Below are positions 8,759 through 13,368 of a stretch of 13,368 nt of DNA, in pieces. This DNA comes from a virus (Duplodnaviria > Heunggongvirae > Uroviricota > Caudoviricetes): IMG/VR virus record IMGVR_UViG_3300029846_000275. One strand, written 5' to 3'. The position numbers and the translations under genes were made by a program. The first letter of the stretch is position 1, and each line of letters opens with the position of its first letter. The notes beneath the pieces are model-generated. The model saw only the letters and a list, made by a program, of their open reading frames with translations. It searched no databases and was not told the DNA's origin.

Positions 8759-8878
8759 TTAATATTTGACTGTTTTAGCTTCCAGTTGCCGTAACGTCTC
8801 ACGACCACTCTGGCGCACGAGTTCCACCACCTGCCCTTTAATTTTTTCCCGCTCTTCTTGTGTAAAAACTTTTGCCAC
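8759..8878 (-). CDS. Hypothetical small protein (39 aa), GTG start
   Basis: Strong SD (AAGGGGGA) 4-5 nt before GTG at 8878; product VAKVFTQEEREKIKGQVVELVRQSGRETLRQLEAKTVKY; lies 40 nt downstream of the rep stop. Confidence 0.3.
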   Translation of the reverse strand: MAKVFTQEEREKIKGQVVELVRQSGRETLRQLEAKTVKY

Positions 8879-8918
8879 AAGTCCCCCTTAAAATTACCTC
8901 ATGACCTGAAATCAAAAC

Positions 8919-9884
8919 TTATCCTCTGAAACCAGGCGGAATTTCTGTATCCGGTTCAGAAATATGATTCACACAACGCTGTACAGGTGAACGTCCCAGG
9001 CGGATGACCAGTTCGTCCCATTTTTCGCGGAGTTTTGACGGGCTCATGATGTTTTTTACCCAGAATGGATCCCGCTGTACCCGACCAAACATTTCGCAAA
9101 TTTGTCTGTGGCTTCTGCCATCCAGCATCCGCATTGTGCGCACGTCATTGGCCCAGGCTGTCCAGTTAGGCTCTTTTGGTCGCATGATCTCTCCATCGTC
9201 GCTGGCAGCCTGTTCGTAAAGGTTCACGATCCGCCCCCAAATCCACTGCGCACACGCCAAATCCTCCCTGCTACCCCACTGGCGTTTTTTCACACTAAAC
9301 ACAACCGCGTCGGGGTTCCGGGTTAAAAAATCCTGTTCAGTCGTCTGCGGGTCCGGTTGCGAAGCTTCCGGACGAAAAGTGTTTTTATTCTCTGTAGTAA
9401 TCTCTGTTGTATTCTCTGTAAGATCATCAGGCCATTTTGACCCGATGACATTGGGTCGTTTTGAACCAATGGAGCGTTTCATTTTGACCTCTTCCATCGT
9501 GTCATTTTGACCTGATGGAGCGGCGCATTTTGAACCGATGGATTCGTTCAATTTGCCACCATCTAAAAGCTCGCTCCCATAGTTGATCGTGTAGAAATTG
9601 GTCATATCGCGCTTTGATTTATTGAGCTTTTCACAACGCAAAAGCCCCAGCGTTTTCAGACTTGCAAACGCGCGCTTTAACGTTGACTCTGACCAGAATG
9701 GGAACTGTTCCAGCCATTGTTCCGTTGTGTTATAAATCCAGCGAACACCATCACATTCCATACCGGAGTTGGTATCTCTCAACCAGTAGTGCAGTTGTTG
9801 CAAAACAATGGCTTCGTTTAAGCCGATTTTCATTGCCAGCTGCGTGTTTATAACCAGTGGGCGTTCAGCAAAAAGAAGACTCAT
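8919..9884 (-). CDS. Lambdoid O-type replication initiator; the origin iterons lie inside its coding sequence
   Basis: N-terminal HTH-like region; internal repeated IGSK peptide motif encoded by six DNA iterons; position downstream of the cro/cII-like genes; start taken as ATG 9884 (the ORF track uses an upstream TTG at 9938). Confidence 0.75.
   Translation of the reverse strand: MSLLFAERPLVINTQLAMKIGLNEAIVLQQLHYWLRDTNSGMECDGVRWIYNTTEQWLEQFPFWSESTLKRAFASLKTLGLLRCEKLNKSKRDMTNFYTINYGSELLDGGKLNESIGSKCAAPSGQNDTMEEVKMKRSIGSKRPNVIGSKWPDDLTENTTEITTENKNTFRPEASQPDPQTTEQDFLTRNPDAVVFSVKKRQWGSREDLACAQWIWGRIVNLYEQAASDDGEIMRPKEPNWTAWANDVRTMRMLDGRSHRQICEMFGRVQRDPFWVKNIMSPSKLREKWDELVIRLGRSPVQRCVNHISEPDTEIPPGFRG
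9387..9421. repeat. Three ~12-bp A/T-rich direct repeats (ATTCTCTGTAG-like) flanking the iterons; candidate origin unwinding region
   Basis: ATTCTCTGTAG / AATCTCTGTTG / ATTCTCTGTAA immediately downstream of the iterons in the direction of rep transcription, as in the lambda ori layout. Confidence 0.6.
9433..9564. repeat. Replication-origin iterons: six direct repeats of ~20-22 bp at ~23-bp spacing, consensus cATTTTGAcC-GATGGAGCG
   Basis: Copies start near 9433, 9457, 9480, 9503, 9526 and 9549 (the last is degenerate: CAATTTGCCACCATCT); all lie within the rep CDS. Confidence 0.8.
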
Positions 9885-10386
9885 AATTCCATCCAGCTTT
9901 TTGTTGGTATTGCTGTCGATACGCAAGCTTGAAAGCAATTGCTTTTTCTATAAGTTCGTCAGTTTCACGATCTACAACGGCAGGATCTGCAAAAAGCAGT
10001 CCAGATTCCACCACATCGCCATATTCTTTATTTAACCCGGCGATCATGTACGTAATACTTTTTCCATCACTGATCTCACGATACAACCTGAAATCACTAA
10101 TCCGGATAGCCTCCATAATTGCAGGCACTAGCGCTGTGAACTTTTCACGCTTATCCCTGGTGTCGATAGCCTTCCAGCGTTCGAATATCTTCACTCGATT
10201 AACGCTAAGCGCTCGCTGATCAACCGCGCCACCTTCATATGTGACACGCTGAACATCGATGTTCGGGCGCTCTTTCAAAGCCCAGAATGCTTCAGTGATT
10301 AATATCGTCGCCTGCTCCTGTGTCATTCCTGGTCGACATATCCAGGCATCCAGAGCCTCACGAGCCTGTTCAGGAGTGATTTTCAT
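9865..10386 (-). CDS. cII-position ORF (173 aa); possibly YdaT-like
   Basis: ATG at 10386 overlaps the end of the dicC-like gene by 17 nt; the motif KREKFTALVPAIMEAI resembles my recollection of YdaT (REKIQKLIPAIL); family assignment is tentative. Confidence 0.5.
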   Translation of the reverse strand: MKITPEQAREALDAWICRPGMTQEQATILITEAFWALKERPNIDVQRVTYEGGAVDQRALSVNRVKIFERWKAIDTRDKREKFTALVPAIMEAIRISDFRLYREISDGKSITYMIAGLNKEYGDVVESGLLFADPAVVDRETDELIEKAIAFKLAYRQQYQQKAGWNYESSFC

Positions 10387-10597
10387 TGTTCAACCGCCCC
10401 GCCCGCTTCGTCTTACGATATTCGTCATAAACTTTGGGATCATACTGAAGCTCCCCGCCAGATGCCTCCTGTAGACGCATCGCGCGACCTTCAGGAACCA
10501 GTATCCCCCAAGCAGCAACACTTGCCAGTCTCACTCCTGCGGCATTGGCAAGCTTTGTTTTGCTGCCAAAAAAAGTAATTGCGTCAACTTTAAGCAT
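10370..10597 (-). CDS. dicC: Cro-like small HTH regulator, DicC-like (75 aa from the ATG)
   Basis: Divergent from the dicA-like gene; GAGGGGG SD 6 nt upstream of ATG 10597 (the ORF track begins at TTG 10600); HTH segment TKLANAAGVRLASVAAW. Confidence 0.65.
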   Translation of the reverse strand: MLKVDAITFFGSKTKLANAAGVRLASVAAWGILVPEGRAMRLQEASGGELQYDPKVYDEYRKTKRAGRLNNENHS

Positions 10598-10610
10598 CAA
10601 AGCCCCCTCT

Positions 10611-10628
10611 TGTTAGATTTTTCTAACA
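10611..10628. promoter_or_regulatory. Candidate repressor operator: perfect inverted repeat TGTTAGA-N4-TCTAACA in the dicC/dicA divergent intergenic region
   Basis: TGTTAGATTTTTCTAACA; the same 7-bp half-sites recur downstream of dicA. Confidence 0.6.
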
Positions 10629-10677
10629 TTATTGTGCGCGGGATACCTAAGTCAAGAAAAATTAGAATTACCTAACT

Positions 10678-11085
10678 ATGGATACAAGAACCCTAGGCCA
10701 GCGAGTTCTGGCGCGACGAAAAGAATTACGCTTAACACAACGAGAAGCTGCGCGCCTCGCTGGAGTTGCTCACGTCACAATTTCACAATGGGAAAGAGAC
10801 GAAACCCAGCCAGTCGGAAAACGATTGTTTGCTTTAGCGGATGCTCTGAAGTGCTCACCTACATGGCTAATGTTTGGTGACGAAGACAAGGCACCAGTGC
10901 CTGCACAAGAACTTCATGTGGAAACAGAGCTAACTCCCAACCACAAAGAATTGATCGAATTATTCGATGCTCTTCCATCTTCCGAGCAGGAAGCCTTGCT
11001 GTCTGAAATGCGCGCAAGAGTAGAAAACTTCAACAAACTCTTCGAAGAAATGCTTAAAGCGCGTAAAAATAAATCAATAAAATAA
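10678..11085 (+). CDS. dicA: DicA-family XRE/CI-type repressor (135 aa)
   Basis: 135 aa with N-terminal HTH (LTQREAARLAGVAHVTISQWERDETQP) and the motifs CSPTW and EMRARVxNFNKLFEE that I recall from DicA; no SD before the ATG (possibly leaderless). Confidence 0.8.
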   Translation: MDTRTLGQRVLARRKELRLTQREAARLAGVAHVTISQWERDETQPVGKRLFALADALKCSPTWLMFGDEDKAPVPAQELHVETELTPNHKELIELFDALPSSEQEALLSEMRARVENFNKLFEEMLKARKNKSIK

Positions 11086-11121
11086 CATTCTTTTCAAGTG
11101 ATTAGTTGCGCCCACTCTTTT

Positions 11122-11139
11122 TGTTAGACCAATCTAACA
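11122..11139. promoter_or_regulatory. Candidate operator in the dicB-operon promoter region: TGTTAGA-N4-TCTAACA
   Basis: TGTTAGACCAATCTAACA, a perfect 7-bp inverted repeat identical in half-sites to the one at 10611..10628. Confidence 0.6.
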
Positions 11140-11157
11140 AAAAACACTTGCCTCTCA

Positions 11158-11174
11158 TGTTAGGTTATTCTAAA
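11158..11174. promoter_or_regulatory. Third, imperfect operator-like site (TGTTAGG-N4-TCTAAAT)
   Basis: About 36 bp downstream of the operator at 11122; left half-site conserved, right half-site degenerate. Confidence 0.35.
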
Positions 11175-11253
11175 TTACTTTCCATCAAGACACCGCACGG
11201 TGTTCTCAGCAAGCAGTTCCGCTACCCCGGCGTTAAGGGGAAATGAGGTCAGC

Positions 11254-11406
11254 ATGGATACTATCGATCTTGGCAACAGCGAATCTCTGGTATGTGGCGT
11301 GTTCCCCAACCAGGACGGTACGTTCACCGCGATGACATATACCAAAAGCAAAACGTTTAAAACCGAATCTGGCGCGCGTTGCTGGTTAGCCAGAAACACT
11401 GACTGA
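11254..11406 (+). CDS. ydfA: Small protein (50 aa), YdfA-like; first gene of the dicB operon
   Basis: ATG at 11254 with GAGG 5 nt upstream; stop overlaps the next start (TGATG); position matches ydfA of the K-12 dicB operon by synteny. Confidence 0.55.
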   Translation: MDTIDLGNSESLVCGVFPNQDGTFTAMTYTKSKTFKTESGARCWLARNTD

Positions 11407-11417
11407 TGAGGCTGACG

Positions 11418-11783
11418 ATGGAATTTAAAGATTTACCGTCTGATGTACAGAAAACAGCAGCTCATACATTGCATTCTGTGCTGCGAGAAATCGGGAAAGA
11501 TATTGCAAGCGAGCCAGCAAAAGATCTGGCCCGGAAAATCAAGACCGCTTTCGTTGAGCTTTATAATGTTGGCACTGACTCTGAAACTGTCGAGACCAAG
11601 ACCGTAAGTTCACCAATATTCTCACTTGAGCCAGGCGTATTATCAGGTGAAATATGCACCGAGATTTCCAGCGAACTGCTTCCGGTAATACGAGAAGCAA
11701 TTTGCCGTCGCGGTTTGGATGGAAGTTACGATCATGACGTCCTGCAAGTTCTCAGGACAATGGTGACTTCACTGGGGATTTGA
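11418..11783 (+). CDS. Hypothetical protein (121 aa) in the position of ydfB/ydfC of the dicB operon
   Basis: ATG at 11418 with GAGG 7 nt upstream (the ORF track begins at ATG 11406); same strand as ydfA and dicB. Confidence 0.55.
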   Translation: MEFKDLPSDVQKTAAHTLHSVLREIGKDIASEPAKDLARKIKTAFVELYNVGTDSETVETKTVSSPIFSLEPGVLSGEICTEISSELLPVIREAICRRGLDGSYDHDVLQVLRTMVTSLGI

Positions 11784-11952
11784 TCCCTGCGTCCTCTAAC
11801 CTTTTGATATAGCGGTCCTCCAAGAAGCGGTAAATTTTGTCGAAATCATCTTTCCCCTCTGGTTTATTCAGAGGATTACAGGACCCGTAAGTAGCGGCAT
11901 ACATTTCAACCGTTTTATCAAAAATATAAGAGACAAATTCTTCTTTAGTCAT
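11752..11952 (-). CDS. Candidate antisense-oriented small protein (66 aa) inside the dicB operon
   Basis: ATG at 11952 with AAGGAA 8 nt upstream; product MTKEEFVSYIFDKTVEMYAATYGSCNPLNKPEGKDDFDKIYRFLEDRYIKRLEDAGIK... is non-repetitive; 3' end overlaps the 121-aa ORF by about 30 nt. Confidence 0.35.
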   Translation of the reverse strand: MTKEEFVSYIFDKTVEMYAATYGSCNPLNKPEGKDDFDKIYRFLEDRYIKRLEDAGIKSPVKSPLS

Positions 11953-12227
11953 ATAGATTTCCTTCTTGGTTATTCGGGATAAGAAGGATACCACCTCGCC
12001 TGACGTGGTTAAAAGCAGGCACACAACACGAAAGCGCACGGCGAAGTTCGTCTCACTGTACGGTGTCGTTAAATTTAATTCGACCGTGCGCTTCCGGTTG
12101 TGGCAACCCGCGAAATGGCGCGGCGGTAAGTATGGCGGGGTTATTCCTTCCCCGTTGAGGACACCGAGTTGTCAGGTTGACCATACGCTTAAGTGACAAC
12201 CCCGCTGCAACGCCCTCTGTTATCAAT

Positions 12228-12280
12228 TTTCTGGTGACGTTTGGCGGTATCAGTTTTACTCCGTGACTGCTCTGCCGCCG
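12228..12280 (+). ncRNA. dicF: DicF small regulatory RNA (~53 nt)
   Basis: TTTCTGGTGACGTTTGGCGGTATCAGTTTTACTCCGTGACTGCTCTGCCGCC followed by a T-run matches my recollection of DicF; lies between the ydfA-C region and dicB as expected. Confidence 0.85.
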
Positions 12281-12448
12281 TTTTTAAAGTGAATTTTGTG
12301 ATGCGGTGAATGCGGCTAAGCGCACGCGGAACAGTTAAAACCAGTGTTATGGGTGGATTCTCTGTATCCGGCGTTAATTGTTAACTGGTTAACGTCACCT
12401 GGAGGCACCAGGCACTGCATCACAAAATTCATTGTTGAGGACGCGATA

Positions 12449-12637
12449 ATGAAAACGTTATTACCAAACGTTAATACGTCTGAAGGTTGTTTTGAAATTG
12501 GTGTCACTATCAGTAACCCTGTATTTACTGAAGATGCCATTAACAAGAGAAAACAAGAACGGGAGCTATTAAATAAAATATGCATTATTTCAATGCTGGC
12601 TCGTTTACGTCTGATGCCAAAAGGATGTGCACAATGA
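12449..12637 (+). CDS. dicB: Cell-division inhibitor DicB (62 aa)
   Basis: Product MKTLLPNVNTSEGCFEIGVTISNPVFTEDAINKRKQERELLNKICIISMLARLRLMPKGCAQ; GAGGA about 8 nt upstream; the ORF track extends it to an upstream start at 12344. Confidence 0.9.
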   Translation: MKTLLPNVNTSEGCFEIGVTISNPVFTEDAINKRKQERELLNKICIISMLARLRLMPKGCAQ

Positions 12638-12825
12638 ATTCAGCATTTGCGCTTGTTCTGACAGTTTTTCTTGTTTCCGGAGAGCCAGTTGATATTGCAG
12701 TCAGTGTTCACAGGACAATGCAGGAGTGTATGACTGCAGCAACCGAACAGAAAATTCCCGGTAACTGTTACCCGGTCGATAAAGTTATTCACCAGGATAA
12801 TATCGAAATCCCGGCAGGTCTTTAA
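12634..12825 (+). CDS. ydfD: YdfD lysis protein (63 aa), start overlapping the dicB stop (ATGA)
   Basis: Product MNSAFALVLTVFLVSGEPVDIAVSVHRTMQECMTAATEQKIPGNCYPVDKVIHQDNIEIPAGL with an N-terminal hydrophobic helix. Confidence 0.85.
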   Translation: MNSAFALVLTVFLVSGEPVDIAVSVHRTMQECMTAATEQKIPGNCYPVDKVIHQDNIEIPAGL

Positions 12826-12918
12826 AACAGTTCCGTAATAAATATCCGGTTTCATTCTTATATGCCAGCAATGGCAGGGATTTGTTCATCCTTAAATCTG
12901 TCATGAGGTTAAAACAAA

Positions 12919-13368
12919 ATGAGTAAAGTCTTTATTTGCGCCGCTATTCCTGACGAACTGGCAACAAGGGAAGAAGGCGCTGTGGCTGTAGCCACAGCCA
13001 TTGAAGCTGGCGACGAACGCCGTGCTCGAGCAAAATTTCACTGGCAGTTCCTGGAACATTATCCGGCTGCTCAGGACTGCGCTTATAAATTTATTGTCTG
13101 CGAGGATAAACCTGGCATACCCCGCCCTGCCCTCGATTCATGGGATGCTGAATATATGCAGGAAAACCGCTGGGATGAGGAGTCTGCTTCTTTTGTCCCG
13201 GTTGAGACTGAATCCGATCCGATGAACGTCACTTTTGACAAGCTGGCCCCTGAAGTACAGAACGCTGTCATGGTTAAGTTCGACACATGTGAAAACATCA
13301 CCGTTGATATGGTTATTAGCGCACAGGAATTGTTGCAGGAAGACATGGCAACATTCGACGGACATATC
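12919..13368 (+). CDS. ydfE: YdfE-like hypothetical protein, partial; reading frame still open at the window end
   Basis: ATG at 12919 with GAGG about 9 nt upstream; 150 codons without a stop to the last base; not in the ORF track because no stop is reached; symbol by synteny only. Confidence 0.5.
   Translation, partial: MSKVFICAAIPDELATREEGAVAVATAIEAGDERRARAKFHWQFLEHYPAAQDCAYKFIVCEDKPGIPRPALDSWDAEYMQENRWDEESASFVPVETESDPMNVTFDKLAPEVQNAVMVKFDTCENITVDMVISAQELLQEDMATFDGHI

Follow-up and report, generated by a model that had tools for sequence, protein, structure and literature searches.

Positions 12228 to 12280 of the window, by which we mean the whole 13,368-nt stretch of DNA analyzed here, hold what on sequence grounds is a genuine copy of dicF, which encodes a prophage small RNA that inhibits Escherichia coli cell division and is found here in its customary position; no feature of the sequence speaks against this identity. 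Very probably, the gene belongs to a Qin-type lambdoid cryptic prophage located between ydfJ and rspB, and its product acts by the mechanism described for E. coli K-12. DicF has been known since about 1990, and nothing about dicF itself is new here. The identity of the gene, its context, the conservation of its flanking structures, and the operator/promoter architecture were read directly from the window and its relatives.

Identity and alleles of dicF

A sequence-only reading of this DNA had placed a 53-nt DicF sequence at 12228-12280 and had proposed an Rfam/Infernal search for it. That search, performed on the whole window with the DicF covariance model (RF00039), gave a match on the + strand at 12229-12280 with a score of 72.5 bits, above the gathering score of 48. 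The match was full length (model positions 1 to 52 of 52), with an E value of 1e-14, or of 1.8e-15 when the search was limited to 11000-13368. As nt 2 of DicF is the first position of the Rfam model, position 12228 corresponds to the annotated 5' end in K-12. Comparison with K-12 dicF (b1574, NC_000913.3 1649382-1649434) confirmed the assignment, since 52 of the 53 bases of the window gene (12228..12280, + strand) were identical. The sole mismatch was found at nt 53, a G in the window and a C in K-12, and this nucleotide is unpaired in the Rfam consensus. All residues implicated in target pairing in K-12 lie within nt 1 to 52 (PMC5069750), and the target-pairing residues are thus unchanged in the window.

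A degenerate core pattern was then used on viral and genome collections and yielded 127 further DicF loci, or 130 matches together with those already fetched. These 130 loci carried 13 DicF alleles, among which the K-12 allele was found 71 times and the allele with G53 (the second most common) 22 times, and the unpaired seed regions of DicF were nearly invariant across them. In agreement with the earlier remark that the gene is invisible to an ORF track, no ORF of at least 40 aa overlapped 12228-12280 in the ORF scan, and the RefSeq annotation of the dicF stretch in strain EC93, the closest genome, consists of protein-coding genes only. The record of phage Tritos labels the same element DicF.

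Pairing of DicF with its K-12 targets

In K-12, pairing of DicF with ftsZ, xylR, and pykA was verified using compensatory mutations; the 5' end of DicF pairs with xylR, and its 3' region pairs with ftsZ and pykA (PMC5069750). DicF alone was shown to cause filamentation (PMC5069750). With RNAduplex, the window and K-12 alleles of DicF gave duplexes with the ftsZ initiation region of -38.9 and -38.5 kcal/mol, respectively, values equalled by 44 of 500 shuffles. The best ungapped pairing, which was identical for the two alleles, joined DicF nt 25 to 36 with ftsZ positions -12 to -1 across the Shine-Dalgarno sequence (11 of 12 positions paired) and was equalled by 506 of 1000 shuffles. The case for DicF-ftsZ pairing at this locus is thus made by analogy, from published experiments on residues that are identical here, and not from computed complementarity.

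The DicF terminator

The 3' end of DicF consists of a GC-rich hairpin followed by a U-run, as expected of a Rho-independent terminator. The terminator (12243..12285, + strand) comprises two stems, 12243-12249 with 12273-12279 and 12251-12255 with 12265-12269, and a T5 run at 12281-12285. DicF had been described as ending in a T-run; the TTTTT is indeed present, but it lies directly past the end of the gene at 12280. The hairpin (12243-12279) folded at -16.6 kcal/mol, compared to -15.9 kcal/mol for the K-12 allele, with the same shape, and this fold was only modestly better than that of shuffled sequences (z = -1.76). Across 95 distinct cassettes (see below), the two terminator stems were 100% and 99.8% paired. 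The hairpin loop carries the ftsZ-pairing residues. The 9-nt loop and the bulge in the stem kept this terminator from being flagged by a simple terminator scan.

A conserved, structured cassette surrounds dicF

The gene lies within a cassette of about 420 nt (12029-12445) that hardly varies among loci and is about 97% identical to K-12, whereas the upstream genes differ; in the alignment, K-12 homology picks up again only near 12011-12030. The cassette was predicted to fold at -161.7 kcal/mol (z = -5.4 compared to shuffles), and its three key helices were 96 to 100% paired in the 95 distinct cassettes. The helices were kept almost wholly by invariance or wobble changes, and changes on both sides were seen in 9 pairs only, most of them in apical regions that vary. 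The cassettes resemble one another too closely for a decisive covariation test, and the support that covariation gives to the flanking helices is weak.

According to PMC10448788, RNase III generates a 190-nt DicF precursor in K-12, and RNase E is needed for the 53-nt species. The features of the cassette fit this published scheme, and we placed the candidate cleavage sites from the fragment sizes. At the upstream end, the minimum free energy (MFE) fold contains a conserved hairpin whose stem measures about 16 bp and whose apex varies (12029..12096, + strand; stem 12029-12045 with 12079-12096). Its stem was 98.4% paired across the 95 cassettes, and its loop sequence was variable. Counted back from the DicF terminator, a 190-nt RNA would have its 5' end near 12091-12096, where the stem of this hairpin closes on its 3' side, and the hairpin is thus a candidate for the RNase III substrate giving the precursor. 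We made this assignment from the 190-nt size, because the RNase III cleavage reported to fall "between positions 813 and 814" (PMC10448788) follows a numbering that the available text does not define. A 76-aa ORF (11966-12196) that overlaps the upstream hairpin region had no Pfam match and was treated as noncoding.

The mature 5' end of DicF (12227/12228) falls in the AU-rich loop of a small hairpin in the MFE fold (12218..12239, + strand), which was 99.6% paired and probably provides the context for RNase E cleavage. Downstream of the gene, a structured spacer between dicF and dicB (12280..12442, + strand) is closed by a predicted 29-bp duplex of 12280-12308 with 12413-12442. This duplex was 95.9% paired in the 95 cassettes, with mostly wobble-compatible changes, and its 3' arm extends to the Shine-Dalgarno sequence of dicB. 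In K-12, the 3' end of DicF is reported to arise by termination or by RNase III cleavage of read-through RNA, which gives a 72-nt form (PMC10448788 and PMC5069750). A 72-nt form would end within the 5' arm of the 29-bp duplex, and this duplex may thus be the 3' RNase III site.

The spacer of the window lacks 6 nt after about position 12346 (CAAAAAC to C). This deletion was found in none of the 118 other loci with full flanks and in none of the 94 other distinct cassettes; the top-ranked genome match in the cassette search, for instance, measured 427 bases compared to 421 for the window, its spacer being 6 bases longer. The missing bases would sit near the apex of an internal hairpin, within a hypervariable segment for which several unrelated alternative sequences occur among the loci, and the predicted architecture of the spacer is the same despite the deletion. 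Moreover, the spacer and the start of dicB (12278-12481, + strand) matched the Rfam model of STnc100 (RF02076), a Salmonella and gammaproteobacterial sRNA candidate, at 35.6 bits (E = 1.6e-05), which is below the gathering score of 47, and the equivalent region of K-12 scored 34.4 bits. The alignment spans the full model of 206 positions, including the long-range closing helix. By the Rfam criterion, the spacer is thus not a member of this family, and the match suggests that it is a diverged relative of the region listed in Salmonella as an sRNA candidate.

Genes of the operon

As claimed by the sequence-only reading, dicF lies upstream of dicB and ydfD. The dicB gene (12449..12637, + strand), encoding a cell division inhibitor of 62 aa, begins 168 nt downstream of dicF and was recognized by Pfam PF05358 (E = 3.4e-40); its product is identical to that of K-12 at 61 of 62 residues. 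The start of ydfD (12634..12825, + strand) overlaps the dicB stop. YdfD, a lysis protein of 63 aa (PMC8835842), matched Pfam DUF1482 (E = 2.1e-26) with 62 of 63 residues identical to K-12, and ydfD is followed by the start of a recE-like exonuclease gene.

The same reading had placed a ydfA-C region upstream of dicF, and this part did not hold. The K-12 order ydfA-ydfB-ydfC-dicF-dicB-ydfD is represented here by ydfA, dicF, dicB, and ydfD only. The first gene past the putative promoter (11254..11406, + strand) is ydfA-like (DUF1391; Pfam PF07151, E = 4.3e-27), and ydfB and ydfC are replaced. We found no counterpart of YdfB or YdfC in the window. The ydfB/ydfC position is occupied by a 121-aa ORF (11418..11783, + strand; phrog_33007, E = 1.2e-82) that has no detectable similarity to either protein and is followed by an ORF of 66 aa that is convergent with the operon (11752..11952, - strand; phrog_34441, E = 1.5e-50) and is annotated in EC93. 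Both phrogs are phage families of unknown function. The two ORFs overlap by 32 nt at their 3' ends, and the ATG of the 66-aa ORF is preceded, at a distance of 7 nt, by a good Shine-Dalgarno motif, AAGGA. The 66-aa ORF is antisense to the dicBp transcript, which must cross it before reaching dicF. No convincing promoter for it was found in a consensus promoter scan. This arrangement of ydfA, 121-aa ORF, and 66-aa ORF is kept in the 186 complete genomes that cover at least 80% of 10600-13368, including E. coli B/BL21 and C strains.

Control region

Upstream of the operon, the window encodes a DicA-family helix-turn-helix repressor of 135 aa (10678..11085, + strand; Pfam HTH_3, E = 1.5e-14), which has the same length as K-12 DicA and is 57% identical to it over 132 aa. 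A Cro/DicC-like regulator gene (10370..10597, - strand; Pfam P22_Cro, E = 4.9e-12; "Cro/CI family" in the EC93 RefSeq annotation) is divergent from the repressor gene. In DNA sequence, the cro-like gene and the ydfA flanks are near K-12, and the repressor gene is far more diverged. A palindrome search revealed three operator-like sites of the form TGTTAG-N6-CTAACA, compared to 0.48 expected, and a count of three was reached in 2 of 200 shuffles. Two lie downstream of the repressor gene, at 11122-11139 (perfect) and at 11158-11175 (2 mismatches), and the third, also perfect, lies between the cro-like and repressor genes at 10611-10628. K-12 carries the same half-sites at the aligned positions. 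A search with N7 spacing gave nothing relevant, the correct spacing being N6.

PMC10448788 places dicBp downstream of dicA and describes it with operator sequences. We placed the putative dicBp of the window by position, between the repressor gene and ydfA at 11148..11176 on the + strand, where the hexamers TTGCCT (-35, 11148-11153) and TAAATT (-10, 11171-11176), separated by a 17-nt spacer, align with TTGACC and TAATCT just downstream of dicA in K-12. The palindrome at 11158-11175 overlaps the putative -10 element. The consensus promoter scan did not find dicBp, whose hexamers match 8 of 12 consensus positions, under the scan threshold of 9 of 12. That this promoter and the DicF terminator were missed by the scans is uninformative, since both are just outside the scan rules. 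The simple terminator scan found no intrinsic-terminator-like site on the + strand between 11180 and 12228.

The conserved operator half-sites suggest that the diverged repressor of the window would repress dicBp. As a separate observation, a repressor only 57% identical to DicA that faces K-12-like half-sites is of interest for a possible cross-immunity of the two repressors. Rem derepresses dicBp in K-12, and to our knowledge, rem is the only known antirepressor gene for this promoter. A tblastn search gave no match to Rem in the window; rem is present in EC93.

According to three studies (PMC10448788, PMC5069750, and PMC8835842), DicF, DicB, and YdfD are each toxic in K-12 and are transcribed from the DicA-repressed dicBp, with transcripts that span ydfA to dicF and ydfA to ydfD and a 22-fold derepression upon deletion of dicA (both PMC10448788). 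A preprint (PMC11430063) lists additional promoters upstream of dicF and dicB; the 2023 study found no evidence for such extra promoters (PMC10448788). The proposal that the element carries three growth-inhibitory functions under one repressor-controlled promoter thus stands in part. The three functions are supported by the K-12 experiments, and the single promoter is the best-supported view (PMC10448788); at the present locus, one repressor-controlled promoter for dicF, dicB, and ydfD is plausible. Repressor control would fit the DicA homologue and the operator-like palindromes, but the homologue is only 57% identical to the K-12 protein.

Prophage context and distribution

The window opens in ydfJ (1-1284, - strand) and continues with ynfT, ydfK, pinQ, tfaQ, and tail-gene remnants. 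By blastn, bases 1 to 8770 are 99.97% identical to strain 14EC033, and 8770-13368 is 99.7% identical to a Qin-like prophage in strain EC93 whose boundary is marked by an integrase adjoining rspB. By these alignments, the element is a Qin-type lambdoid prophage that has suffered deletion and occupies the same site as Qin in K-12 (ydfJ to rspB). The mosaic junction at about 8770 falls within the DUF977 gene of the EC93-type prophage and removes rem, hokD, and the lysis region, such that the replication and immunity region directly adjoins the tail-gene remnants. Among the complete E. coli genomes of the collection, none contained the whole window in one piece. In the left part of the window, we also observed a full-length match to RF02111 (IS009) at 3340-3538 on the - strand (226.8 bits compared to a gathering score of 117), which lies inside the tfaQ-like tail-fiber assembly gene (3306-3881, - strand).

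The DicF cassette was found in 4721 of 5426 complete E. coli genomes (87%); the number of places per genome had a median of 2 and reached 10 at most. It was also present in temperate phages, including Tritos, mEp460_ev081, and Stx2-converting/PPompW phages. A strict pattern scan with one genome per species, which understates the spread of diverged DicF relatives, returned 7 loci, in Escherichia, Shigella, and three metagenome bins. The latter are exact DicF cores on contigs of metagenome-assembled genomes assigned to Veillonella parvula, "Proteobacteria bacterium," and Collinsella sp. (L009, L010, and L011), and they are most likely mis-binned E. coli prophage sequences rather than signs of real hosts.

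Proposed mechanism and alternatives

We favor a mechanism that follows K-12, from whose experiments we would expect expression, processing sites, Hfq binding, and target regulation at the window locus by analogy. The DicA-family repressor would hold the PL-like dicBp (about 11148-11176) off. Upon a lapse of repression, a polycistronic RNA would run through ydfA, the 121-aa ORF, and the 66-aa ORF (antisense to the latter) into the DicF cassette. RNase III would cut the upstream hairpin at 12029-12096 to give the 190-nt precursor, and RNase E would set the mature 5' end by cutting at 12227/12228. Two routes would lead to the 3' end, namely, intrinsic termination at the hairpin and U5 (12243-12285) and, on read-through transcripts, RNase III cleavage within the 29-bp spacer-closing duplex; read-through transcripts would also supply DicB and YdfD. 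Hfq-bound DicF would then pair with xylR through its 5' region and, through its hairpin loop and 3' region, with the ribosome-binding site of ftsZ; it would also pair with pykA. Together, these pairings would block translation and lead to filamentation.

An intact dicF might effectively never be made in a heavily deleted prophage whose upstream region was remodeled and whose rem was lost. Such a silent relic would be in keeping with the join of 14EC033-like and EC93-like sequences at 8770, where the lysis, rem, and hokD region is missing, with the lack of a Rem match in the window by tblastn, and with the convergent 66-aa ORF between promoter and dicF, which could interfere with read-through. 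We nevertheless consider it unlikely. No damage is seen in the putative promoter, operators, hairpins, terminator, dicB, or ydfD, all of which differ little from functional copies, and the ydfA/121-aa/66-aa arrangement is retained in the 186 complete genomes. Moreover, PMC10448788 reports that stationary-phase DicF accumulation and spontaneous, urea-induced, or heat-induced derepression are Rem independent in K-12. About equally unlikely is the view that the hairpin, U5, and RNase III duplexes serve mainly to attenuate and process a PL-type transcript and so set the level of dicB/ydfD mRNA, the sRNA being secondary. This view can draw on the 1,146-nt ydfABC-dicF transcript that ends at dicF in wild-type K-12 and on a longer read-through form that accumulates only upon RNase E inactivation (PMC10448788), as well as on the reach of the 29-bp duplex to the dicB Shine-Dalgarno sequence and on a U-run of only 5, which suggests a leaky terminator. 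It is compatible with an sRNA function, however, and in K-12, filamentation results from DicF alone, with ftsZ, xylR, and pykA under its control (PMC5069750); a terminator alone would not need the unpaired seeds that are nearly invariant in the 130 loci.

We give even less credence to a special behavior of the variant operon (EC93, E. coli B and C), which seems to us very unlikely. Here, transcription of the 66-aa gene would collide, or its RNA form a duplex, with the dicBp RNA, such that output of DicF, DicB, and YdfD needs a second signal; or DicF would be made from an unrecognized promoter within 11953-12028; or the 6-nt deletion would shift RNase III processing or dicB translation. A chance resemblance or a degraded dicF pseudogene fragment is practically excluded, being refuted by the E value of 1e-14, the full-length model match, the identity at 52 of 53 bases, and the synteny with dicB. 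A functional dicF of a Qin-type prophage, working as in K-12, thus remains the preferred reading. Its importance is small beyond correct annotation: an ORF-only annotation, such as the RefSeq annotation of EC93, misses one toxic regulator of the prophage. Two descriptive points are mildly new, namely, that a sizeable minority of strains (the 186 complete genomes) is without ydfB/ydfC and carries the convergent ORF and that the prophage of the window has lost rem.

Comparison with known systems

The window differs from K-12 in carrying G53, in the 6-nt spacer deletion, in having unrelated ORFs, of which one is on the other strand, in the place of ydfB/ydfC, in a repressor 57% identical to DicA, and in being without rem. 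It shares with the K-12 Qin dicF the U5 tail, the hairpin, and structured flanks of about 200 nt upstream and 170 nt downstream, and as in K-12 Qin, dicF is directly upstream of dicB-ydfD at the same chromosomal site, between ydfJ and rspB. Unlike the loci of EC93, B/BL21 and C strains, and phages, the window lacks the 6 spacer nucleotides that those loci carry, and EC93 keeps upstream the rem, hokD, and lysis genes that the window is without. With EC93, the window has in common the whole of 8770-13368 (99.7% identity), including its repressor, both ORFs (121 and 66 aa), and G53; the latter allele also occurs in phage Tritos.
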